Source: Methanobacteriota archaeon
Lineage (GTDB): Archaea > Thermoplasmatota > Thermoplasmata > SG8-5 > JAGLSY01
Length of the DNA: 64,000 nucleotides
NCBI GenBank assembly: GCA_020697715.1
Contig: JAEHCO010000003.1
Span: 1-64,000 of the forward strand
Reading direction: 5' to 3'
The notes under the pieces were generated by a model. It saw nothing but the letters and a program-made list of their open reading frames with translations, was not told where the DNA came from and did no database searches. The position numbers were made by a program, and so were the translations under genes. Below are positions 9,924-60,389 of this stretch, in pieces (position 1 is the stretch's first letter; each line of letters opens with the position of its first letter).

Positions 9924-10054
9924 GAAAGTAGTCGGTTGCCGTAAGACCATCATTAAATCAATGTATCACCGCAGCGATTATAACGCTGCGTGTTTGGTCT
10001 TATGGCCTTGAATGGGAACATTCAGGCTATTTAGCCTGATAGTTTTCAAACGGC
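9924..10054 (+). repeat. Structured ~130-nt repeat element, copy 1 (putative ncRNA or ssDNA hairpin element)
   Basis: Homologous to 52440-52572; stem gccgtaagacca/tggtcttatggc, inner hairpin cgcagcg/cgctgcg, stem tgggaac/gttttca enclosing tcaggcta/tagcctga. Confidence 0.75.
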
Positions 10055-46067: not shown

Positions 46068-47027
46068 ATGAACGATAATATGACAATAGAATATCGACAC
46101 CCAACAATAGATGACATCGAGGCTATGACCGATATAGCCAACAGATCCAGCAGAGAACTGCCGCTCCACAGAGATAATACTGTGGAGGAGATGAGAGCCT
46201 GGACCTTTGAAGAGGAAGATTATGACCCGAAGGGATACTTACTGGCTCTGGTTGATGGAGAACCTGCAGGTTACGGCGGTACAATGGTTCAAAAGAGCCG
46301 TCAGGAATCTGGCATGAACGATATCCACATTGGTTTGGGTGTCGTGCCAGAGCATCGGGGCAAGGGCATCGAGCAATATCTTATGAAGCATGGACTGGCC
46401 TTTGGTAGGGAAAAAGGGATCAAATATGCAAAGAGATGGTGCAGTCTGACCGAGGGCTGGAGGCATGATCTCAGCCTGGAATTCGGCTTCAAGGACGTCC
46501 GCCATGGTTATGTCATGGTGTATGATCAGAATGCTCCGCCGCCAAATGTACCCCTGCCCGACAATATGAGGTTCGAGCACCATGACTTCAAGAGTGCCAG
46601 TAGTGAGGTCATCACTCAGTTCGTTGAAGGGTTCAATGATTCTTTTGTCGACCATTATAATTTCTCACCTGTACCTATCCAGAGATTCATTAAGGCTCAG
46701 GAAGTGGACATGGAGCCAGGTCGCATCACCTTTGCAAAGGAAGGTGATGATATCTCAGGCGTACTTCTCGTAGAGGAGTCTACGGAATTCAATAAGGAAA
46801 ATGGGACAAAGGTAGGCTGGGCCAATGTATTGGGTGTTCGTAAGGAATATAGAAAGAGAGGCATTGGAAGAGCCCTATTATCTGATGGTATGAAGTGGAT
46901 ACTTGACCAGGGCATGGACACCGTTTATCTTGGCATGGATGCCGAGAACGCCAAAGCACTGGACCTATACCTGTCACTGGGCTTCAAGGTCGATCAGGAA
47001 GGTATCACTTACCAACTTGACCTATAG
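46068..47027 (+). CDS. Tandem-domain GNAT acetyltransferase
   Basis: Two motif-A copies VVPEHRGKGI and GVRKEYRKRGIG; NAKALDLYLSLGF. Confidence 0.88.
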   Translation: MNDNMTIEYRHPTIDDIEAMTDIANRSSRELPLHRDNTVEEMRAWTFEEEDYDPKGYLLALVDGEPAGYGGTMVQKSRQESGMNDIHIGLGVVPEHRGKGIEQYLMKHGLAFGREKGIKYAKRWCSLTEGWRHDLSLEFGFKDVRHGYVMVYDQNAPPPNVPLPDNMRFEHHDFKSASSEVITQFVEGFNDSFVDHYNFSPVPIQRFIKAQEVDMEPGRITFAKEGDDISGVLLVEESTEFNKENGTKVGWANVLGVRKEYRKRGIGRALLSDGMKWILDQGMDTVYLGMDAENAKALDLYLSLGFKVDQEGITYQLDL

Positions 47028-47122
47028 ATCAGCATAATACAAAACTAACTATGATGTATATTTTTATACATCGGAGAACACTTATATACTATATCGTCCT
47101 CCTCGCCCTTCAAGGTGACAAT

Positions 47123-47623
47123 ATGTGGGACATAGTGAAAGTGAAATTCGAGAACTACCCAGCGCAGGAAAAGATAGCTGAAAAGCTGATGGAACACGGC
47201 ATATCCGTGAAGAACGGCCTACTTTATTCGGGCGATATCTACATGCCGGGCACGGCCTTAGCGAGGGCAACAGGTACAGATCGCCGAGTTGTATTATCGA
47301 CCATCCAGACCATCATGCACGACCCGGAACTGGAGAATATCTTCGCCAATATTCGTCCAATTTGCAGTTTTAAGGACGTGGCACCCAGCATGAACTGGGG
47401 TGTCCTCGAAATTCAGCCAGATGATGTTGACAAGCCTGGAATTGTAGCGGATGTGACGCAGATACTGGCCAGGGAGAATATCAGTTTGAGGCAGATCATT
47501 GCGGATGACCCAGGGATCATGAAGAAGCCAAAGGCTTTCTTCATTTCAGAAAAGCCAATACCAGCGAAGCTCCTTCCTATGATAAAGGAGCTGGATGGGG
47601 TTAAGGGAGTTTCGATCTATTGA
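47123..47623 (+). CDS. ACT-domain regulator of amino-acid metabolism (COG2150-like)
   Basis: YPAQEK, ALARATGTDRRVV, PGIVADVT, ISLRQII. Confidence 0.85.
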   Translation: MWDIVKVKFENYPAQEKIAEKLMEHGISVKNGLLYSGDIYMPGTALARATGTDRRVVLSTIQTIMHDPELENIFANIRPICSFKDVAPSMNWGVLEIQPDDVDKPGIVADVTQILARENISLRQIIADDPGIMKKPKAFFISEKPIPAKLLPMIKELDGVKGVSIY

Positions 47624-47694
47624 TGACACTGTGAAGGATAAGCGGATGCGAAACCAATTTAACCATCCAGCCTATTTCGGGTTTAGGTAATATC

Positions 47695-48477
47695 ATGACC
47701 CTCAAGATAGGAATAATCGGCGGCAGTGGAATTGCAGATGCAGGTTTCTTTACGGAGATAGATAAGATAAACTTGGACACGCCTTATGGGAAACCATCTG
47801 GTTCTTTCATAAAAGGCGAGTACGAGGGCGTTGAGATATACTTCCTCAATCGGCACGGAGCCGGCCACACCATTCCCCCTCACAAGGTCAATTACAGGGC
47901 GAATATCTGGGGAATGAAAGAACTGGGTGTCAGTATCCTTCTATGCCCGTCAGCCGTCGGCTCGCTCAAAGAAGAGTACGAGCCAGCCCAGATATGCATA
48001 ACAGATCAATTCATTGATTTCACAAGAGGTCGCGATCTGACATTCTTCGACGGCCCAAAGGTGGCTCATCTTTCCATTGCCGATCCTATGTGTGGCAGTC
48101 TGAGGAAACTTCTCATTGATGAATGTGAGAAGCAGAGCCTGGCACATCACAAGAAAGGAACTTATGTCACGATAGCCGGCCCTCGCTTTTCAACAAAGGC
48201 TGAAAGCCATATGTTCCGCAATTTCGCTGATATAATCGGCATGACGCTGGTTCCCGAATGCCAGCTGGCCAGAGAATTGGGATTGTGCTATGCGAATATC
48301 GCCATGATAACTGATTATGATGTCTGGAAGGATAAGCCAGTCAATATCGAGGAGGTCATCAAGACCATGAAGAACAATGTTGGTAAGATTCAATCACTTC
48401 TTCAGGGTGTTATTCCAAGACTGGCCGAGTTGGATAATTGCAACTGTAAAGCTACCGCGCTAGATTCCGAGATGTAA
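47695..48477 (+). CDS. mtnP: S-methyl-5'-thioadenosine phosphorylase
   Basis: IGIIGGSG, TPYGKPS, RHG, VNYRANI, GPRFST, GMTLVPE, TDYD. Confidence 0.92.
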   Translation: MTLKIGIIGGSGIADAGFFTEIDKINLDTPYGKPSGSFIKGEYEGVEIYFLNRHGAGHTIPPHKVNYRANIWGMKELGVSILLCPSAVGSLKEEYEPAQICITDQFIDFTRGRDLTFFDGPKVAHLSIADPMCGSLRKLLIDECEKQSLAHHKKGTYVTIAGPRFSTKAESHMFRNFADIIGMTLVPECQLARELGLCYANIAMITDYDVWKDKPVNIEEVIKTMKNNVGKIQSLLQGVIPRLAELDNCNCKATALDSEM

Positions 48478-48570
48478 TGTCCAAATATTATCCATATTGA
48501 GGAATACCCAGGGATTTCCCGCGATACGCTTATATATGCTAAAACCTACACTCATACCAGAGACGATAAT

Positions 48571-49518
48571 ATGACAGAAATACAACATATAATCAAGACC
48601 TCTGGCCTGAAGAAGACTTTCAAACAGGTCAGGGCGGTCGATGACCTTACCCTTACTGTGAACAGGGGAGATATTTACGGATTTCTTGGGCCAAATGGAG
48701 CCGGAAAGACCACGACCATCAAGATGATACTGGACCTTGTCCAGCCCGATGGCGGAGATATCTGGCTGAACGGGATCAATATTGCAGAGAACGGTGTGAA
48801 TACCCGTGAGGGTATCGGATACCTTCCAGAGAGGGCTCAATTCTACCAAAACCTCACCGCCATCCAGACAATGGAATTCTTCGCGGAATTGAAAGGCGTG
48901 GACAAGGATCAGTGTGACGAGCTCCTTGCCAAGGTGGGCATGGACAGATGGCGCGACAAGAAAGTTGGCACATTCTCAAAGGGAATGGTACAGCTTGTTG
49001 GTGTTGCTCAGGCACTCCTTGGAGAACCACAATTACTCATACTCGACGAACCGACATCTGGATTGGATCCCAGATGGTCCAGAGTGCTCAAGGATATCAT
49101 ATTGGAGATGAATGGAAAAGGCACTACGGTTTTCTTCTCATCCCATTTACTTTCAGAGGTTCAGGAATTATGTAACCGCGTTGCTATCCTGAATCAGGGT
49201 CACTTGATAATCGAGGACACGGTGGCACATGTCAGCGGAGGCATGAGCAATAAGCCAAAGCTGGTCATACGTGTTACCAGTGAGCCTGAGAAAGCTGTCC
49301 AGGCGATCAAGGATGCTGGCTTTGACGAGGTCGAGGTTCACGGCAATCAGATATCTGTCCTGGTGGAAAGCACGGACAAATCCAAGATCCTCAAAGCCCT
49401 CAGTGATGCTGAGATATCTGTTGAGGATTTCAAGACCATCGAGCCATCTTTGGAAGATGCCTTCATGGGCTATATTGGCCAGGAGGCCATTGCTGGAGGT
49501 GTCATCAATGGGCCTTGA
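48571..49518 (+). CDS. ABC-2 type exporter ATP-binding protein
   Basis: GPNGAGKTT, FSKGM, LILDEPTSGLD, SSH. Confidence 0.93.
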   Translation: MTEIQHIIKTSGLKKTFKQVRAVDDLTLTVNRGDIYGFLGPNGAGKTTTIKMILDLVQPDGGDIWLNGINIAENGVNTREGIGYLPERAQFYQNLTAIQTMEFFAELKGVDKDQCDELLAKVGMDRWRDKKVGTFSKGMVQLVGVAQALLGEPQLLILDEPTSGLDPRWSRVLKDIILEMNGKGTTVFFSSHLLSEVQELCNRVAILNQGHLIIEDTVAHVSGGMSNKPKLVIRVTSEPEKAVQAIKDAGFDEVEVHGNQISVLVESTDKSKILKALSDAEISVEDFKTIEPSLEDAFMGYIGQEAIAGGVINGP

Positions 49519-50380
49519 GATCAACCTGAATAAAGTAATGTCGATCGCTAAGAAAGAATTCATGGACAATTGGAGAAACAAATGGGTGCTGGCACTTAGT
49601 ATTCTATTCATGATCCTGGTAATAGCCTTCTCCTACTTTGGAGGAGCAACTGGAGGAAGTGTCGAGTTCCAGGGGTACGCGGATACAGTTGCAGCTATGT
49701 CCACCATTGCCGCCATGTTCCTGCCGATCATAGCAATTATGCTTGGCTATGGCTCGGTAATAAGCGAAAGAGAGAATGGGTCAATGGGTGTTGTCCTGGG
49801 CTGTCCGGTCTCCAAATTTGATGTGATAATAGGTAAATTCCTAGGACTTGGTTCAGTGTTGATGGCCACGATATTGATAGGATTCGGAGTATCTGGCATC
49901 ATTGTAGGAGCAATAGCTGGCTTTGAAGGAGGGGTAGAATACTTCCTCTTCATGATGCTGACCTTCATATTCGCCATGTTCTTTCTGGGATTCTCCATAT
50001 TCATGTCCACAATTGCGAACAAACGTTCTACCGCGATAGCTGGAGGCCTTGTAGTGTTCTTCAGTGGTATGATAGCAGGTATGATCCTATTCGGGTTATG
50101 GATAGCCAGTGGAGGGGACTTTGGAGCAATGATGGATGCCGCCATGACAGGCGGAGATATGCCTTCCTTCCCTGATTGGTACTGGGCTGGTATGTTCTTC
50201 AGCTTCATGGACATATATCCAATGGGTGCGATGCTCTTGTTCAATCTGACGGATTTCTCTGGTATCTCCTATGCATACCCAGATTTTGTAACCGCAGTAT
50301 CGATCTCCGCATGGTTCACCGTACTTACGCTCTTGTCCTTCTTTGGTTCCCTGTTCGTCTTCGATAAGAAGGATCTATGA
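49508..50380 (+). CDS. ABC-2 type permease (NosY-like)
   Basis: IAKKEF, ERENG, P.S...IIGKFLG; 6 TM; overlaps the ATPase end. Confidence 0.88.
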   Translation: MGLEINLNKVMSIAKKEFMDNWRNKWVLALSILFMILVIAFSYFGGATGGSVEFQGYADTVAAMSTIAAMFLPIIAIMLGYGSVISERENGSMGVVLGCPVSKFDVIIGKFLGLGSVLMATILIGFGVSGIIVGAIAGFEGGVEYFLFMMLTFIFAMFFLGFSIFMSTIANKRSTAIAGGLVVFFSGMIAGMILFGLWIASGGDFGAMMDAAMTGGDMPSFPDWYWAGMFFSFMDIYPMGAMLLFNLTDFSGISYAYPDFVTAVSISAWFTVLTLLSFFGSLFVFDKKDL

Positions 50381-50388
50381 GGTAATGA

Positions 50389-50889
50389 ATGAGCCAGTAC
50401 TCACTATATAAGGAAACTATCTGGTGGAAGGAGATAATCGTCACAATAGGGACAATGTCAGTGCTATTTGGAGTACTGGCATTCTTCTTTCTTTTCAGAT
50501 CAACGGATCCTGAAAGTGAGCGAGTTTTGCTATTCATCATTTTCTCGATAATTAGTGTATTATTCATTTTTCTGACCTATTATTTCAGGAAGCTGGACAT
50601 TGATATACACAATGATGGTGTGAGCATTGGTTGGGCCTACTTCAAAAAAGAGTATGTTTGGTCCGATATCGAAGAGGTCTGGAAGGATGATCGCAATGCC
50701 ATGAGATACGGTGGCTACGGCATCAAAGGCACTTATATGAACGGAAAATGGGTGCTGGTATACAATGTCATCATGGCTGATAGAGTGGTTCTGAAGCTGA
50801 AGGAAGGAAAATACGGTGAATTCGTATTCTCCACAAAGGATCCAGATAAGGTGATCGGGCTGATCGAACCATACCTTGGTAAACAGTAG
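50389..50889 (+). CDS. Hypothetical 2-TM protein with bacterial-PH-like domain
   Basis: Two TM; W.DIEEV; YGGYGI; FSTKDP. Confidence 0.65.
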   Translation: MSQYSLYKETIWWKEIIVTIGTMSVLFGVLAFFFLFRSTDPESERVLLFIIFSIISVLFIFLTYYFRKLDIDIHNDGVSIGWAYFKKEYVWSDIEEVWKDDRNAMRYGGYGIKGTYMNGKWVLVYNVIMADRVVLKLKEGKYGEFVFSTKDPDKVIGLIEPYLGKQ

Positions 50890-50904
50890 ATATCGGGTTA
50901 AGAT

Positions 50905-50955
50905 CATCAATCACATCAATCACATCAATCACATCTATCATATCAATTACATCAA
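50905..50955. repeat. 9-bp tandem repeat (CATCAATCA), about 5.5 copies
   Basis: catcaatca x3, catctatca, tatcaatta, catcaa. Confidence 0.85.
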
Positions 50956-50989
50956 GCTCAATTATTTATAACACAGTCAGATTGACCCT

Positions 50990-52177
50990 GTGATGATGGA
51001 CATCGACTACTCTGAGCTTGAGAGATATGATCACCAATGCCTGGATGGCTGTGGCCTATGTTGCCTCTGCCAGCCAGAATTGGATGATGATGAACTGGCA
51101 GTTTTCAGAAAGGCAGGTCTTGAAGAAGGGCTGACAAATTATCATGTGCAGGGTGGCCAGAAAACCGATGAACCAACGGCCATCAAGCTTCAAGGCGGCA
51201 GGGGAGCCTGTCATTTCCTGAAGGATCTCAGATGCCAGATACATGATGTTCGTCCTCGACCATGCCGACAGTTTCCGGTTCAGGTCCATTTGTTAAGGAG
51301 GGTGCAGGTAAATGCCAATCTGGCCTGCCCAGGGATATTCGATAATACCTCGGATAGGGGCACGATGGCCTCTTCAGGGAAAGGCGGAGATAGTCTGCTG
51401 GCCTTTGGGAAGGAAACCATATCGAAAATTCCACAGGATGAGATGGAAGACATATTCGAACAGGCAGTGGAAATTGTAAAAGAATTTGATGAGCACACTC
51501 TTGATTTCGAGGTCTATCAGGATCCAGGGGCCTTGAAGGACGCTGGCACTGATCTTATCAATGGGATGAAGGGTTCGGATTGGATCGCCAGAACACTGGC
51601 CTGGTCCAATGAGGAATCCATTGGCACTGATCTCAAGAACAAGACATTCGCAAGGGATGTATTATCTCATGTTCCGGAGCCTGATATTCTGGAGGTCGCC
51701 AATGATGGGAACATTGACCTACTGGACCAGGATGATCTGGCCCAGATACCCGTGTTCGTGGATGATGATATGAAATGGATCGCACTTAGATCCAGAAAGA
51801 ACATTATCGATGTTATGAGAATGGAAGAAGATGGCTCCCTGGAGACAATGCACGAGATCCCAATGGATAGCATAAAATTGATGGATTGGACAAGCGATGG
51901 GACCGAGGTCTTTCAGAATTATGCAAGACTGCTCAATGACAGAGATCCCTTCATGGGGTATGTTTACCAGGTATGCGCGGATCAGGATTTCCAATTCGAT
52001 CTTGCCACAGTGTATATTGGAACAATGGCGACGACAATGCTGGATCTGTGGTGGAGAGCTTCCTTGATGGGTATGGTGAAGGGAGAAAAGAGCATTGGCC
52101 AGAACCTGGCGAAGGTGGGGATCAAATCTTTTGATATGACCAGCCTGGGAGCGCCCAGTATCGGTTTGTTCATATAA
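50990..52177 (+). CDS. YkgJ-family (CxxCxxCC) cysteine-cluster protein
   Basis: CLDGCGLCC, CHFL, CQIHDVRPRPCRQFP, CPG. Confidence 0.85.
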   Translation: MMMDIDYSELERYDHQCLDGCGLCCLCQPELDDDELAVFRKAGLEEGLTNYHVQGGQKTDEPTAIKLQGGRGACHFLKDLRCQIHDVRPRPCRQFPVQVHLLRRVQVNANLACPGIFDNTSDRGTMASSGKGGDSLLAFGKETISKIPQDEMEDIFEQAVEIVKEFDEHTLDFEVYQDPGALKDAGTDLINGMKGSDWIARTLAWSNEESIGTDLKNKTFARDVLSHVPEPDILEVANDGNIDLLDQDDLAQIPVFVDDDMKWIALRSRKNIIDVMRMEEDGSLETMHEIPMDSIKLMDWTSDGTEVFQNYARLLNDRDPFMGYVYQVCADQDFQFDLATVYIGTMATTMLDLWWRASLMGMVKGEKSIGQNLAKVGIKSFDMTSLGAPSIGLFI

Positions 52178-52235
52178 TTCTTATAGGAAAGAATTTAATA
52201 ATGTTCTGAATTTCCTGGCTCATAGTAATCGCAAT

Positions 52236-52319
52236 GCGGGGATACCCGAGCTAGGTCAAAGGGGTGGGGCTTAGGACCCCATGGTTAGTCCTTCGCCGGT
52301 TCGAATCCGGCTCCCCGCA
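52236..52319 (+). tRNA. tRNA-Leu (anticodon TAG)
   Basis: Acceptor gcgggga/tccccgc + A; anticodon arm tgggg-cttagga-cccca; long variable arm; T arm ccgg-ttcgaat-ccgg; CCA not encoded. Confidence 0.95.
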
Positions 52320-52610
52320 TTTATTTATTAAAGGATTCGAACGGAGTTCGATTGAGAATTTACTTGTAAATTCGAGAGAGCACCGCAACGAAGTGTAGGT
52401 GCGAAATCCGGCTCCCCGCATTTATTTATTAAAGGATTCGAAAGTAGTAGTCGGCTGCCGTAGTCCCATCGAAAATTATTCAACTAATCTCGAAGCCAGA
52501 CGTGAGCTTCGAGAATTTGGGACTATGGCCTTCGATGGAAACATCATGCCGAAGGCATATCGTTTCCACGGCTCTCCGCATATTTTTGTATAGGAATTCG
52601 AAAGTAGTAG
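52304..52610 (+). repeat. tRNA 3'-end direct repeats (three copies) separated by hairpin cassettes
   Basis: Perfect 38-bp repeat 52304-52341 = 52405-52442; degenerate third copy 52569-52610. Confidence 0.85.
52440..52572 (+). repeat. Structured ~130-nt repeat element, copy 2
   Basis: Homologous to 9924-10054; gccgtagtccca/tgggactatggc, tctcgaagc/gcttcgaga, tggaaac/gtttcca enclosing atgcc-gaa-ggcat. Confidence 0.75.
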
Positions 52611-52755
52611 CCACATTATTCATCTCACACACTATTTACAGGTGATCTGAATCAAAATCCCACATAATTCAATAGAGGCCAACAATCGTTAAGTATCCAA
52701 ACGAATAAGTATCATTTATCTATATCTGGTCTTGCTTGAATAGAGGAGAGTGTAG

Positions 52756-55215
52756 ATGGACCCTGAAAATGATAAGCATATTACAACAGTCTTCGTAGGT
52801 CGAGACAATGAGATCAGCGTCTTGAACAATTATCTAGAGGAAGCAAGGTCTGGACACAGCAAGCTTGTATTTGTCACAGGAGAAGCTGGCATAGGCAAGA
52901 CCCGGCTTATCCGCGAAGTTGGTAATCATGCAAAAGAAATGGGTGCCCAGTTCATAACTGGTAGGTGTATATCTCATCAGCATGGTGACCCCTACCTGCC
53001 ATTTATTGATGCTCTCGGGATCAAACTTGGATCTAAATCCTCAAATGATTCAAATAGCTTTTCAAATCTGCCAATAGGCATGTCTGGGGTCGGTGATGAT
53101 TCCAGTTATGAGGATGATGGCGATCTTCCACTTGGTCTCTTACCAATGGCGGGAGGCCATGATACCAATATCGCTGATATGGATATGGCTGGGCAAAGAG
53201 ACCGTATGTTCAATACGATCGCCGATCTTATTAAGACCAGGGCGACAAAGGATCCATTGTTCATTTTCCTTGACGATATGCAATATGCGGATGGGGCCAC
53301 ACTTCAACTTTTATTTTATATTGCCAGATCCCTGCAGAATTCCAAGGTCATGATATGCTGTGCTTACAGACCTAATGAATTGGATATGCCTCAGGGACAG
53401 GTACATCCTCTTACCCAGATGTTGAGACGGATGGGGCAGGAGAAACTGTACAGTTCACTTCAGCTCAATCCGCTTTCCCTTGACGAGATAAGGGAAAAGG
53501 TGGAGTCCATCCTGGAAATAACAGATATTCCATCTGGCTTCATGAACAAATTATATGATGAGAGCGAGGGAAATCCCTTCTTCGTCGAGGAAGTGCTAAA
53601 ATCACTCATGGATGAGGGAGTGATAAAGCGCCATTCACATATCTGGGATGCTGGTCTAGACCTATCATCCATAAGGATACCCAATACTATCAAGGATGTC
53701 ATAACTCACAGGATCGCCAAGATGAATGAGAGCTCGAAGAAGGTTCTCAAGTATGCGTCAGTCATTGGCCAAAAGTTCCAATTCGATGTTCTTCAAAAAG
53801 TATCGGAAATGAACAGCGAGGAATTACTGGACACTCTGGATCATCTCATTGATATCGAGATGATACATGAGGATTCTGGCAGCCACCATGAAGAAGCATT
53901 CTATTTCGGTCACAAACAGACCAGGACGGTCATCTACGAAGGCATGAGTCGAAGCAGGATCAGGGTCATGCACCTGAAGGTGGGTAATATCATCGAGGAG
54001 ATGTACAAAGGTCGATTGAATGATGTTATCTTCGCCCTTGCCAGACACTTCACGCTTGGCAAGGATTTCACACGATCACATGAATATTCAAAACAAGCAG
54101 GTACAGCCGCCATGGCAAGCTTCGCCTTTGAGGACGCTATAGAACATTTCACTACTGCTTTGAGGGCACTGAGCTTCTTGGGAGATGATTGTGGTATCGA
54201 TATCAAGAAGGAAGGCCTGGACCTATCATTCCAATTGGGTGACCTTGATTATGCAATGGGAGATCCAGCAGCTGCTGTGGAACATTATAGAAATGCTCTC
54301 CAGAACAGCCAGGCTCTGGGTGATAAGGAATCTGAAGCTGAGGCTTACCTTTACATCGGGCATACGGAAAGGCTCAGGGGTAATTTCCACCGGGCTGAGG
54401 ATATGTATGAAAAGGCCATTGTTCATTTTGATTCCACTGATAACTATGCTGGGCTTGCCGGAAGTCAACAAGGCCTGGGATATGTCCACTGGAGGAAGGG
54501 TGAGAACGATGAGGCTGTGGAGCATTACAAAGAAAGCATAAGTTTCTCCATGAAAGCCGGTGATGATCATGGAATGGCCAAGACCCATATCGAATTGGGC
54601 AATGTCTACAATTATTGGGGAGATTATGCAAAGGCCATGCAGTATTACAAGAAATCCATACCGCATTTGGAGAAGGTCGGTGACTATAATGAACTGGCCA
54701 GAGCTTATAACAATATGGGCGATTCCACTATCAAAGTGGATGATTTTCATGGTGCCCTGGAGTATTTTGAGAAATGTAAGCAAGCTTCTGAAAAGATCGG
54801 GAACAAGAACTTCGTTGCATGGAGCCTGTTCAATTCAGCAGAGGCATTGGCCTACCTTGGAGAATATGACAAGGCAGAAGATTATTGTGTTCGCGCACTC
54901 AAGATATGCGAAGACCTGGATGACAGGGTGGGCATGAATGGTGTGTTCAAGAACTTTGGTGTTATTTACAGATTCAAGAAGGAATGGGACAAGTCCATCG
55001 AGAACTTTAATAAAAGTATCGTGATATTGGAGATGCTGGATATCCCATATGAATTGGGTGTCACCTATAGTGATCTGGCAAAGACCTATGAGGACATGGG
55101 AGAGATAGAAGAGGCCCTGGAGAATTTCAATATGGCCAAGGATCTTCTTGAGAGTGTTGGCTCAATGTCCGAGGCCAAGGAGATCGAGGACAAGATCAAA
55201 GAGCTTGAGGGATGA
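52756..55215 (+). CDS. STAND-type (AAA_16-like) NTPase-TPR protein
   Basis: FVGRDNE, GEAGIGKT, LDDMQYAD, EGNPFF, ~9 TPRs; SD GAGGAG. Confidence 0.9.
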   Translation: MDPENDKHITTVFVGRDNEISVLNNYLEEARSGHSKLVFVTGEAGIGKTRLIREVGNHAKEMGAQFITGRCISHQHGDPYLPFIDALGIKLGSKSSNDSNSFSNLPIGMSGVGDDSSYEDDGDLPLGLLPMAGGHDTNIADMDMAGQRDRMFNTIADLIKTRATKDPLFIFLDDMQYADGATLQLLFYIARSLQNSKVMICCAYRPNELDMPQGQVHPLTQMLRRMGQEKLYSSLQLNPLSLDEIREKVESILEITDIPSGFMNKLYDESEGNPFFVEEVLKSLMDEGVIKRHSHIWDAGLDLSSIRIPNTIKDVITHRIAKMNESSKKVLKYASVIGQKFQFDVLQKVSEMNSEELLDTLDHLIDIEMIHEDSGSHHEEAFYFGHKQTRTVIYEGMSRSRIRVMHLKVGNIIEEMYKGRLNDVIFALARHFTLGKDFTRSHEYSKQAGTAAMASFAFEDAIEHFTTALRALSFLGDDCGIDIKKEGLDLSFQLGDLDYAMGDPAAAVEHYRNALQNSQALGDKESEAEAYLYIGHTERLRGNFHRAEDMYEKAIVHFDSTDNYAGLAGSQQGLGYVHWRKGENDEAVEHYKESISFSMKAGDDHGMAKTHIELGNVYNYWGDYAKAMQYYKKSIPHLEKVGDYNELARAYNNMGDSTIKVDDFHGALEYFEKCKQASEKIGNKNFVAWSLFNSAEALAYLGEYDKAEDYCVRALKICEDLDDRVGMNGVFKNFGVIYRFKKEWDKSIENFNKSIVILEMLDIPYELGVTYSDLAKTYEDMGEIEEALENFNMAKDLLESVGSMSEAKEIEDKIKELEG

Positions 55216-55382
55216 TCCCTTATCCTTATCTATAATTCTACAAGCTCAGGTTTATCAATATTTTTAAATGTACTGTACAGCAGACCTGCAGGCTGTGATA
55301 AGGACAATTTATTGGTTTAGCTAGCACTAGCTCATGCTTAAGTTAAACTATTTGCCAGTTGCTAGATGAGATGAGTAGCCGA

Positions 55383-56918
55383 TCAAACTATTGGTATCAG
55401 TTTGATATGTGGTGCGCCTTTTTCCTCATCTGCCACGATACCGTAGATAATGGTCTTTGGTTTGATACCATAGATACATGGGCACTTGTTTATGTCCGTG
55501 ATCTTCAGATAGGTATCTGCCATGTTCATTATCTCCTGGGTCAGCTTGAGTCCTGGTTTGATGATGCCAATTCCGATATCCTCTGATATCTTGATCTTGG
55601 CAACTGCCTCCAGAAGCTGTTTTATGGCAACTCCGCCACCCTGTAGGTATTCGAGGGTGTCGAATCCAGTATAATCGATTATTGGCTTGTTCTCCGGCCC
55701 TCTGAGGAACTCCATATTACTCTTCCAGACCCTGACTGCCTCATCCTTGTTCCTGGTTCCGAGAGCCATGATATAAGGTGAATCGGATTTTTGTGTGAAG
55801 TAATCCGCTATCCTGACATGATCATCGAACTTTTGATCCGGCATATAGGTTGTCAGATCCTTCTTCACGGAATCCGCATGGTCACCGCCAGTAAGTACGG
55901 CGAACACGCCTTTGTTCTGGGTAATGAAGTTAAGTAATATTGGCCTGACAACAGAATAATATTCATCACTGGATACATTCTCATCGACCTGGATAACATT
56001 GTAACTGCCCTTTGAATATCCGCCCGAAAGCAATTCATCTAGGTCCTTGGTACCCGTACTGTAATGGGTTTCCGTGTCAATTATGGGATCCCATTGTATA
56101 GATTCCATATTCGATAGACTGCCATTGAAGGGATCGAAGCTCATGAATCGACCATCTTTCAATGTTGTGAGATAGGATGGTTGTGCTATCTGGGTCGCTC
56201 TCAGTTTGAGCAGGTGCATTTGTCTCACCCTGCGTCCTTCCAGAGCACTATAATCAAATTGTATAACACCATCAACAAGGAAAGCCAGATCCGCATTGCT
56301 TTCTTTCTCAAGTACGAAAAGAACGTCTACATTGGATCCCTCTACCAGGTCCTTCTGTATGCACATGATCAATTCATCCTGCTCCAGCGAATATTTATTG
56401 GTAACACCCTCCACGCTATCTATGATAAGCATGGATTTTGCTGGCAGTATGGAATCTACCTTGTCGTATATTCTCTCTATCTCCGGCATGCGATTACGTT
56501 CAAGAAGCACAGAAAGTCTTGTTCTGTCAACCTTTCGTGGGGCATCCAAAGGTTTTTCATTGATGGATTTGAGGAATTCCTTGGCATTGGCCAGGTTAGC
56601 TGGGTCTTCCTGAACAGAAGGTGAATCATCCTCATCATTGTATAGGCTGGCCAAGAACACGCGGCTGGAATCGATTATCCTGCTCCTCATGTCCTCTTCC
56701 TTCAACCAGGGAAATTGTTGATACAATGCATTATCGGATACTCGTGTAGAAAGATAGAAGCTCCTTTGTGGCTCTGCCATCTCCTCAAGTAATTGAAGAG
56801 CGAAGGTAGTCTTTCCAGTACCTGCACTACCCATTACCATTAGCGATCGGCCACCTTGGGCTTCGAAGAATTCTCTGATCTCTGTTGGGATAGATCTCTT
56901 AGATTTTTCCTTGCTCAT
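55383..56918 (-). CDS. Double-domain KaiC/GvpD-like RecA-superfamily ATPase
   Basis: Domain 1 GSAGTGKT, IIDS, LVDGVI, KLRAT; domain 2 YSTGTKDLDELLSGGY without a canonical Walker A. Confidence 0.85.
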   Translation of the reverse strand: MSKEKSKRSIPTEIREFFEAQGGRSLMVMGSAGTGKTTFALQLLEEMAEPQRSFYLSTRVSDNALYQQFPWLKEEDMRSRIIDSSRVFLASLYNDEDDSPSVQEDPANLANAKEFLKSINEKPLDAPRKVDRTRLSVLLERNRMPEIERIYDKVDSILPAKSMLIIDSVEGVTNKYSLEQDELIMCIQKDLVEGSNVDVLFVLEKESNADLAFLVDGVIQFDYSALEGRRVRQMHLLKLRATQIAQPSYLTTLKDGRFMSFDPFNGSLSNMESIQWDPIIDTETHYSTGTKDLDELLSGGYSKGSYNVIQVDENVSSDEYYSVVRPILLNFITQNKGVFAVLTGGDHADSVKKDLTTYMPDQKFDDHVRIADYFTQKSDSPYIMALGTRNKDEAVRVWKSNMEFLRGPENKPIIDYTGFDTLEYLQGGGVAIKQLLEAVAKIKISEDIGIGIIKPGLKLTQEIMNMADTYLKITDINKCPCIYGIKPKTIIYGIVADEEKGAPHIKLIPIV

Positions 56919-57279
56919 TGGTAAGCACCTCCTTGACATTCTCAACTGCCTCATTCAGGGCCACAGCAAGTTTATCTGGTTCTGCATTCTTTGCGAATAT
57001 GGCGATCAAGGCCTTTGAACCAACACTGCTGGCCATAAGCAGGCCGCTATTGGATTCAATTACTATCTTATTGGGAGGGTCCTGTTCCAAACTGGAATAT
57101 ACTACCTCCGAGGCCCCTAAAATAGTGGCCGATAGTGTTGAAAATGTTTCGATCTGGTTATTGTCTGGGATATTCCAGGCAATTGGTACTCCACTCCGCG
57201 ATATTATAGCGGAAATCTCTATTTCATGCTTCTTATTTAGCGACTCGAGCTCTTTATTTAGCTCTCCAACCATTGACAT
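56899..57279 (-). CDS. Roadblock/LC7 (MglB-like) domain protein
   Basis: SAIISRSGVPIA, FSTLSATILGASE, KIVIESNSG; SD GGAGGG. Confidence 0.88.
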   Translation of the reverse strand: MSMVGELNKELESLNKKHEIEISAIISRSGVPIAWNIPDNNQIETFSTLSATILGASEVVYSSLEQDPPNKIVIESNSGLLMASSVGSKALIAIFAKNAEPDKLAVALNEAVENVKEVLTNEQGKI

Positions 57280-60307: not shown

Positions 60308-60350
60308 TGAATGAAAACTTTCAGATTCTTCAGGGTCTGATAGTTTTCAA
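60308..60350 (+). repeat. Partial copy (3' stem module) of the structured repeat element
   Basis: tgaatgaaaactttcaga...tctgatagttttcaa aligns to 10009-10049 tgaatgggaacattcagg...cctgatagttttcaa with compensatory changes. Confidence 0.6.
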
Positions 60351-60389
60351 CCCAAATGCTTAATTATTAAAGCCACGATAACTAATCGA

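Follow-up and report, generated by a model that had tools for sequence, protein, structure and literature searches.

The non-coding elements known as PATEs and the autonomous transposons IS608 and ISDra2 are the described systems closest to the repeats reported here. The target of IS608 is TTAC. According to the available parts of one published account, TnpA binds subterminal hairpins of 20–25 nt, and in cleavage of the IS608 type a guide located 5′ of the hairpin foot interacts either with the target in the left flank or with the last bases of the right end (PMC6006769). PATEs of Haloquadratum, as far as the accessible text of their description goes, have near-terminal palindromes and no inverted ends, are of non-coding length, produce no target duplication, follow a 4–5 bp target at their 5′ end, and exist as heterogeneous copies whose ends are common to IS605-type transposons (PMC3119063). 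Non-coding elements derived from IS200/IS605 are known in Geobacillus too, in the accessible portion of that source (PMC10055086), and IS200/IS605 is the most widespread archaeal IS family in the accessible portion of a 2026 survey (PMC13343696). Our literature search found no published description of the element family analysed here.

As PATEs do, members of this family lack inverted repeats, in their full-length form have palindromes near both ends, cause no target duplication and are non-coding; they share their ends with transposase-bearing IS200/IS605 elements, follow a short 5′ target, vary from copy to copy, insert into one another and outnumber the autonomous element (PMC3119063, for the traits given in its available part). 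However, the host here belongs to the uncultured Thermoplasmata, with MAGs that bear the label Methanomassiliicoccales; the parent element has tnpA alone, whereas haloarchaeal parents mostly carry tnpB (IS1341-type); and the copies hold a conserved P1/P2 domain that the parent lacks, while most copies in the source genome have no canonical left end. The likeness to IS608 and ISDra2 lies in a Y1 HUH gene between left and right subterminal hairpins on the same strand, in bases 5′ of the hairpin foot that pair with terminal bases (PMC6006769, in its available part), and in insertion after a fixed short sequence, here TTTAG or TTA[C/G/T]. Unlike those transposons, the copies at our locus have no transposase gene, and the pairing of guide and terminus, as read from the sequence, would form a full 6-bp Watson–Crick helix.

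The window, by which we mean the whole 64,000-nt stretch of DNA analysed, holds the family at three places, all on the given (+) strand. Copy 1 is a unit of two domains (D1–D2) at 9925–10052, and copy 2 is a second such unit at 52444–52572; both were delimited by reading the sequence, and they score 113.9 and 110.2 bits, respectively, with a covariance model in whose seed both are included. In each, domain 1 is formed by an 11-bp helix (P1) that encloses an A/T-rich strand, some 21 nt long, together with a 7–8-bp hairpin (P2); hairpin 2 has P3 as its 6-bp outer helix and P4 as its inner one, with a 2x2 internal loop between them. The paired arms of copy 1 are 9938–9948 with 9996–10006 for P1 (gccgtaAGAcc/ggTCTtatggc), 9970–9976 with 9984–9990 for P2 (cgcagcg/cgctgcg), 10014–10019 with 10042–10047 for P3 (gggaac/gttttc) and 10022–10027 with 10034–10039 for P4 (tcaggc/gcctga). 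For copy 2 they are 52457–52467 with 52519–52529 (P1, gccgtaGTCcc/ggGACtatggc), 52489–52496 with 52506–52513 (P2, ctcgaagc/gcttcgag), 52537–52542 with 52562–52567 (P3, ggaaac/gtttcc) and 52546–52550 with 52554–52558 (P4, atgcc/ggcat). The third place, 60309–60352, is a solo hairpin 2, that is, D2 or the right-end hairpin without D1 (nhmmer E 2.3e-4; fold z −3.4), with P3 at 60312–60318 and 60343–60349 (tgaaaac/gttttca) and P4 at 60321–60325 and 60336–60340 (tcaga/tctga). Copy 1 overlaps at its 3′ end the TGA stop (10046–10048, minus strand) of a TPR gene, and the solo hairpin begins 27 nt past the stop of an amino-acid kinase gene; a KaiC-type ATPase gene and a tRNA-Leu gene are the other gene neighbours.

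A first-pass annotation, made from the letters of the window, had already described stems at 9924–10054, 52440–52572 and 60308–60350, and on reading the sequence again we find them as it gave them, with the arms of P1, P2 and P3 changing together and the same flanking genes. Its inner pairs of the second stem agree with ours for copy 1 and for the partial copy, but it had missed the P4 of copy 2. It had counted two copies and part of a third; these three sites are real, but the genome holds the element at 21 places (E<1e-3).

Both full copies fold far better than shuffled sequences on either strand, whether treated as DNA or as RNA (z −5.5 to −6.9; 0 of 200 shuffles as good). When 16 copies from the source genome, G000, were aligned with MAFFT, 88.6% of cells were paired and 18 of 29 pairs varied on both sides; none of 500 shuffles equalled this, and partners slid out of register were paired in 31–44%. 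For 65 distinct copies, drawn from at least 17 genomes, the paired cells amount to 94.3% and 26 of the 29 pairs are changed on both sides (again 0 of 500 shuffles equal), in an alignment that was fitted to the covariance model and hence leans towards it. The same model-fitted alignment contains 95 GU or UG wobbles against 25 AC or CA mismatches, or 49 against 25 once one wobble, conserved in 46 of the 65 copies, is set aside. Because G-U exceeds A-C, we take the given (+) strand to be the folding strand. The earlier proposals that structure is kept over sequence and that the plus strand is the one that folds are thus borne out, the former by strong covariation in the 65 copies and the latter by the surplus of G-T wobbles, and so is its view that the element belongs to no known Rfam family: at gathering and at permissive thresholds, only tRNA reached threshold, the other scores being 8.7–22.8 bits where thresholds are 39–90. 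A possible pseudoknot between a CATC strand and the linker was rejected, as it was inconsistent across the alignment by eye. Hairpin 2 occurs in a short form and a long form with about 23 extra bases in the P4 loop. We note that these extra bases resemble a partial duplicate of the hairpin’s own 5′ arm and that the long form is found in many copies of genome G002 and of the second taxonomic family (e.g., L050, L057 and L025).

The source genome (2.12 Mb in 34 contigs, 93.8% complete) contains 16 full and about five partial copies among the 21 places found by profile search, all of them intergenic or overlapping gene ends by a few bases. The covariance model was built from the 16 copies of this genome, which it recovers by construction together with two weak places. 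Applied to 61 genomes of the class, as the first pass had proposed, it gave matches in 17, G000 counted: every one of the five genomes of the window’s own taxonomic family (G000 is one of these) and 12 of the 13 in a second family, with none in 43 genomes from 19 other families. The set covered all 22 genomes of the order in our collection; the element is present in 17 of these and in 0 of 39 outside the order. Copy numbers per genome reach at least 56, and all such counts are lower bounds. A strict pattern for hairpin 2 matched at least 129 stretches; among the matches listed, the 80 record titles all belong to MAGs that carry the name Thermoplasmata, Methanomassiliicoccales or “Methanobacteriota archaeon”, and the same pattern had no matches in viral contigs. 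Truncation at the 5′ end occurs, although the count of 57 versus 11 is biased since many loci were fished with a 3′-end pattern. Many contigs of the source genome are tiny (500–1100 nt, C7–C27), and an element copy is cut at the start of contig C6, which suggests that repeats broke the assembly.

The origin of the family is indicated by two relatives. In genomes G010 and G020, a 158-aa ORF matching Pfam Y1_Tnp (E 1.3e-28) is preceded by a module that we call D0, a hairpin between GAGAAC and ATGAATCG (5′-to-3′ layout: GAGAAC, hairpin, ATGAATCGACC). Directly past the stop of this ORF stands GTAAAC-G-CCAGTCCC-TTTA-GGGGCTGG-TA-GTTTAC, which is hairpin 2. The final 30-odd bases of the autonomous element agree, apart from a few mismatches, with hairpin 2 as it occurs in non-coding copies of these genomes and of their relatives, and the loci L085 and L086 display these shared ends directly. 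At the other end, D0 precedes many non-coding copies in other genomes; one motif detects it in 35 of 109, and a stricter motif in 26, with a 27th match that was false. In 80 metagenome loci that encode TnpA relatives, a D0 profile matched 37, on the strand of the gene, and the element profile gave 20 matches in 19 loci, all at profile positions of at least 92, that is, within hairpin 2; these stand just 3′ of the TnpA gene, with the exception of an extra match upstream of the gene in L278. Domain 1 was absent from every autonomous copy examined in these 80 loci. The tnpA 3′ end does have a short helix, GCCAAAC/GTTTGGC, with one compensated change in L270, and this helix may be the ancestor of domain 1, which we offer only as a suggestion.

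Sequence at the left boundary is also conserved. The left end of 14 of the 15 autonomous copies borders on TTTAG, while the remaining one follows the end of another copy, and TTA[C/G/T] precedes the left end in 25 of the 26 non-coding copies that bear D0. The right end terminates at GTTTAC or GTTCAC. New copies are found within the CTTTAG loop at the right end of a different copy or immediately behind such an end (L272 upstream of the left end, L147, L278, L039 and L025), so the element carries its own preferred target, building tandem and nested arrays. Tandem repetition, head to tail and up to fourfold, of the terminal 15 bases of the right end (GGGCTGGTAGTTTAC) occurs at L270:974–1018 and in the downstream flanks of L215, L147, L148 and L149, and it looks like stutter at the cleavage site. 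The two element ends are not inverted repeats of each other. A classical MITE was rejected as there are no terminal inverted repeats and no target-site duplication.

What we observe, then, is a structured family that shares homologous ends with an autonomous IS carrying tnpA only, with a conserved left-flank sequence, no target duplication, and presence or absence that differs between species of one genus. The 130-nt unit is probably the right-hand part of a non-autonomous IS200/IS605-family element, a PATE, that is moved as single-stranded DNA. Hairpin 2 would be the transposon right end, with P4 as the subterminal hairpin that a Y1 HUH TnpA would bind on one strand, and P3 would join guide bases 5′ of the hairpin foot to the last bases of the element, thereby setting the cleavage point. 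D0 would be the left-end module, abutting the target TTTAG or TTA[C/G/T], with insertion 3′ of that target. The element would be excised as single-stranded DNA, circularized and pasted 3′ of the short target without duplication, with TnpA supplied in trans. Compensatory changes could then reflect selection, copy by copy, for the hairpins and for guide/cleavage pairing; only the top strand would matter, which would account for the G-T wobbles. Domain 1 (P1 around the 21-nt strand, plus P2) is, on the same reading, a conserved passenger. The first-pass annotation had left the choice between an unrecognised non-coding RNA and a mobile single-stranded hairpin element. It is the second of these that is supported, by the homology of hairpin 2 to an IS200-type right end and by copy turnover without target duplication; domain 1 may or may not have a role as RNA. 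That annotation had also stated that a match to a known IS-end family would remove the novelty of the element; such a match was found in relatives, and it concerns hairpin 2.

Several observations stand against the reading as a PATE. Domain 1, which holds most of the covariation that was noted first, is missing from the autonomous element; tRNA-linked copies lie between direct repeats of about 36–117 nt; the empty sites aligned below do not look like clean insertions; and the window copies are without D0 in a genome in which no matching TnpA was found. With respect to the last of these, both full window copies consist of the right-end hairpin and domain 1 only, preceded by other 5′ sequences. 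The D0 profile had one good match in G000, at C22:45034–45086, beside a copy at C22:45093, and C22:45034–45224 is accordingly a copy in this genome with D0 at its left and hairpin 2 at its right. Like the full-length D0-bearing copies of relatives, it carries a subterminal hairpin at each end, both on one strand. A search of G000 with the L086 TnpA gave no relative at E<=1e-10, and close relatives of this TnpA (85–100% identity) occur only in G010 and G020, two of the 22 genomes of the order and two of the 17 that bear the element. Since no matching TnpA was found, the copies of the source genome, mostly D0-less, may be relics, or a different TnpA may move them. An autonomous copy in G000 was considered at C32:14166 and rejected, as this 5′ partial copy precedes a surface-protein gene and not a transposase. 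The sole Y1 gene of G000 (C1:16359–16709, L068) is of another type and adjoins a tRNA-Phe gene, with no element beside it. As a side observation, it is about 33% identical to the matching one in its closest same-genus relative, and its relatives share other end motifs (ACTTTCGCCCACCCC). For a link to IS110 elements and their bridge RNAs, just a 67-residue fragment of an IS110-type transposase (G000:C26:23–223, on a 502-nt contig) was seen. A SINE-like route was rejected because no reverse transcriptase was found in G000.

In place of D0, some copies in this genus have 5′ modules of at least two other kinds, one with a CTAATCGC...GCGATTAG hairpin and one with a CACATATT...AATATGTG hairpin followed by AAATATTTGA, as at C28:68730, C34:23475, C11:314716 and C11:49719 in G000 and at L110, L115, L116 and L119 in G003. 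One right part is thus combined with left parts that can replace each other, which makes the family a mosaic. Neighbouring copies stand head to tail, with no inverted doublets seen. Orientations within contigs are 5+/2−, 4+/0− and 4+/0−, and GC skew is too weak for placing origins.

This dispersed, intergenic and mosaic pattern, reminiscent of BIMEs, raises the question of whether we are dealing with REP/REPIN-like repeats that a domesticated RAYT transposase, present in single copy, has spread. REP, BIME and REPIN sequences, as given in the accessible parts of two accounts, are likewise dispersed intergenic hairpins with compensatory changes, G-T pairs and mosaic clusters, linked to a Y1 HUH protein and often positioned after genes (PMC3733652, PMC6006769). 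Y1 genes are mostly single-copy in the order, and some of our copies have GTAG or GTGG at their 5′ edge. In REPs, however, the GT[AG]G tag lies 0–2 nt 5′ of the hairpin foot (PMC6006769, in its available part), whereas here just 14 of the 65 copies have GT[AG]G at the fixed position, which lies 6 nt away from the foot of the helix. There is no consistent tag and no RAYT gene flanked by repeats; nor were inverted doublets seen. No element lies within about 1.5 kb of nine Y1 genes (best match 16.9 bits, E 0.09), Y1 genes are also present in the element-free families f2 and f3, and their motifs (DHVH, and YI..Q near the tyrosine) appear IS200-like rather than RAYT-like. REPs measure 20–40 nt, whereas the units here are 130–215 nt with several helices, and GTAG families are listed for bacterial phyla only (PMC3733652). 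We consider a RAYT-driven origin extremely unlikely.

A ~130-nt structured block that ends exactly at a right boundary, with unrelated sequence beyond, is also what TnpB omega RNAs look like, and PATEs often encode omega RNAs that are used in trans (PMC10055086, in its available part). The unit could on this basis be an omega-RNA-like guide scaffold for a TnpB/IscB-like or unrecognised nuclease acting in trans. Yet the parent element encodes TnpA only, and no TnpB was found in family-bearing genomes: the TnpB zinc ribbon PF07282 was over cut-off in none of the 17, G000 included, with three faint matches below it, in a search to which control genomes responded. When the variable loops were compared with the flanks, no clear guide-like match emerged: loop 1 has matches of at least 8 nt in 13 of 109 own flanks and in 63 of 1080 crossed ones, so that any excess is weak and may reflect neighbouring copies. 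An omega RNA is consequently a very unlikely explanation, and we return to the preferred one, a PATE moved by TnpA.

Movement of the element can be followed between species of one genus, where, as the first pass had suggested looking, orthologous sites with and without the element were compared. Of 17 copies in G003, five are common to it and G000 (L106, L119, L120, L109 and L114), nine are at sites where the G000 spacer is shorter by 138–214 nt (L105, L110, by 190 nt, L111, L112, L113, L116, L117, L118 and L121), and three are ambiguous (L107, L108 and L115). Copies thus come and go between same-genus species, and no target duplication was found in the eight filled/empty sites of G003 and G000 that were aligned. 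Where the alignment is clear, the empty sites hold about 10–60 nt or more of unrelated sequence in the place of the element, and the events were therefore not clean insertions. The site orthologous to copy 1 has hairpin 2 alone in G002 and unrelated filler in G003.

Gene ends are affected by this turnover. In L105, the first base of the element falls right at a neighbouring gene’s stop codon, for which the element provides a new one. Read as its reverse complement, the element terminus gives TGA or TAA, and six copies in G000 host the stop of an opposite-strand gene (10046–10048 in the window, C11:49846, C33:14712, C11:274635, C11:524460 and C22:249908). An opposite-strand reading frame ends in the element terminus in 41 of 109 copies, compared with 34% when flanks and elements were cross-paired. 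Special targeting of stop codons was rejected on this comparison, as coding flanks and a built-in stop suffice.

Copies linked to tRNA genes present a different picture. The tRNA-Leu(TAG) gene of the window (52235–52320, + strand; ARAGORN; Rfam tRNA 55.3 bits) has its 3′ end duplicated on either side of copy 2. A 36-nt direct repeat of tRNA 3′ end and trailer, R1 (52306–52341, +), is followed by a 65-nt insert outside the D1–D2 family, module 1 (52342–52406, +), and then, as the sequence reads, by an identical repeat, R2 (52407–52442, +), immediately 5′ of copy 2. A third repeat, R3 (52570–52610, +), is a diverged tRNA 3′ end and trailer plus “agtagtag” (score 18 as a 42-nt imperfect repeat), and it starts inside the final bases of copy 2. 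Module 1 also lies behind tRNA-Leu(CAG) on contig C22, where two tandem copies have 83% identity to copy 2. The series 3′ of both tRNA-Leu genes is the same: the 65-nt insert, a repeat of tRNA 3′ end and trailer, and one or two copies, each then followed by another repeat (window 52306–52610; L001, at G000:C22:278700–279500; and L097:2180–2860 in G003). The repeats measure about 36–42 nt here and on C22, and about 117 nt, nearly perfect, in G003 by eye. The cggc with which, according to the first pass, a gtcg/cggc pairing could close a multi-way junction comes, where copies are linked to a tRNA gene, from this duplication of the tRNA 3′ end; it is unconserved elsewhere, and the junction is not supported.

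Such an arrangement invites the explanation that tRNA-linked copies are remnants of an integrase-driven insertion into tRNA-Leu and that the dispersed copies are spread pieces of it. In its favour, copy 2, both C22 copies and the G003 orthologue all lie between repeats of the tRNA-Leu 3′ end and trailer, and the T-arm and acceptor end are common to both tRNA-Leu genes (TAG and CAG). Nevertheless, 13 of the 16 full copies in G000 lie away from any tRNA gene and have no such repeats: their flanking repeats score 5–8, like most cross-paired controls (mean 7.5), and the remaining three, with higher scores, are the tRNA-linked copies. G000 has a single integrase-family gene, on another contig, and the repeats reach far into the trailer, which suggests duplication or recombination and not an att core. 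An integrase is accordingly scarcely probable as the source of the family. The long tRNA-Leu duplications are not explained by IS200/IS605 transposition either.

The absence of domain 1 from the autonomous IS bears on another alternative, namely that D1–D2 is a structured RNA, whatever its transposon origin: a cis-acting stabiliser or terminator at 3′ ends, or a family of small RNA genes that the host maintains. No public sequencing run, of RNA or otherwise, was listed for positions 47000–56999 of the window. Although the IS lacks it, domain 1 is present in nearly all copies with many double changes, and the one conserved G-U wobble is of a piece with this. The family persists in 15 of 17 element-bearing genomes where no matching TnpA was found, many copies lie just 3′ of genes, and one orthologous copy is 92% identical between G000 and G003 where its flanks are 90% and 81% identical. 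However, no common promoter-like box was seen by eye at a fixed upstream distance, copies occur in either orientation to their neighbours, with at least three of 21 in G000 antisense to both flanking genes, and their gain and loss within a genus and their mosaic architecture with interchangeable 5′ modules also count against an RNA. In addition, hairpins required by a single-strand transposase would be expected to yield the same covariation. We therefore regard a structured RNA as unlikely. It is similarly improbable that domain 1 and hairpin 2 together are a selected structured RNA in genomes without a matching transposase, as a guide-like scaffold for an unrecognised protein or as a 3′-end module recruited by the host. 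If it were so, a guide-like RNA would read the DNA just past the right end, and a host-recruited module would end or protect the transcripts of abutting genes.

If the units are, as we think probable, the right-hand parts of a PATE, the extra domain and the orphan copies raise the question of how such elements persist without a transposase. The element would be one that breaks assemblies and reshapes gene ends in a poorly known archaeal order, and its copies can be masked or annotated with our covariance model and with the profile of the left end. A repeat family that fills many intergenic spacers would thereby gain a concrete origin and a testable mechanism.
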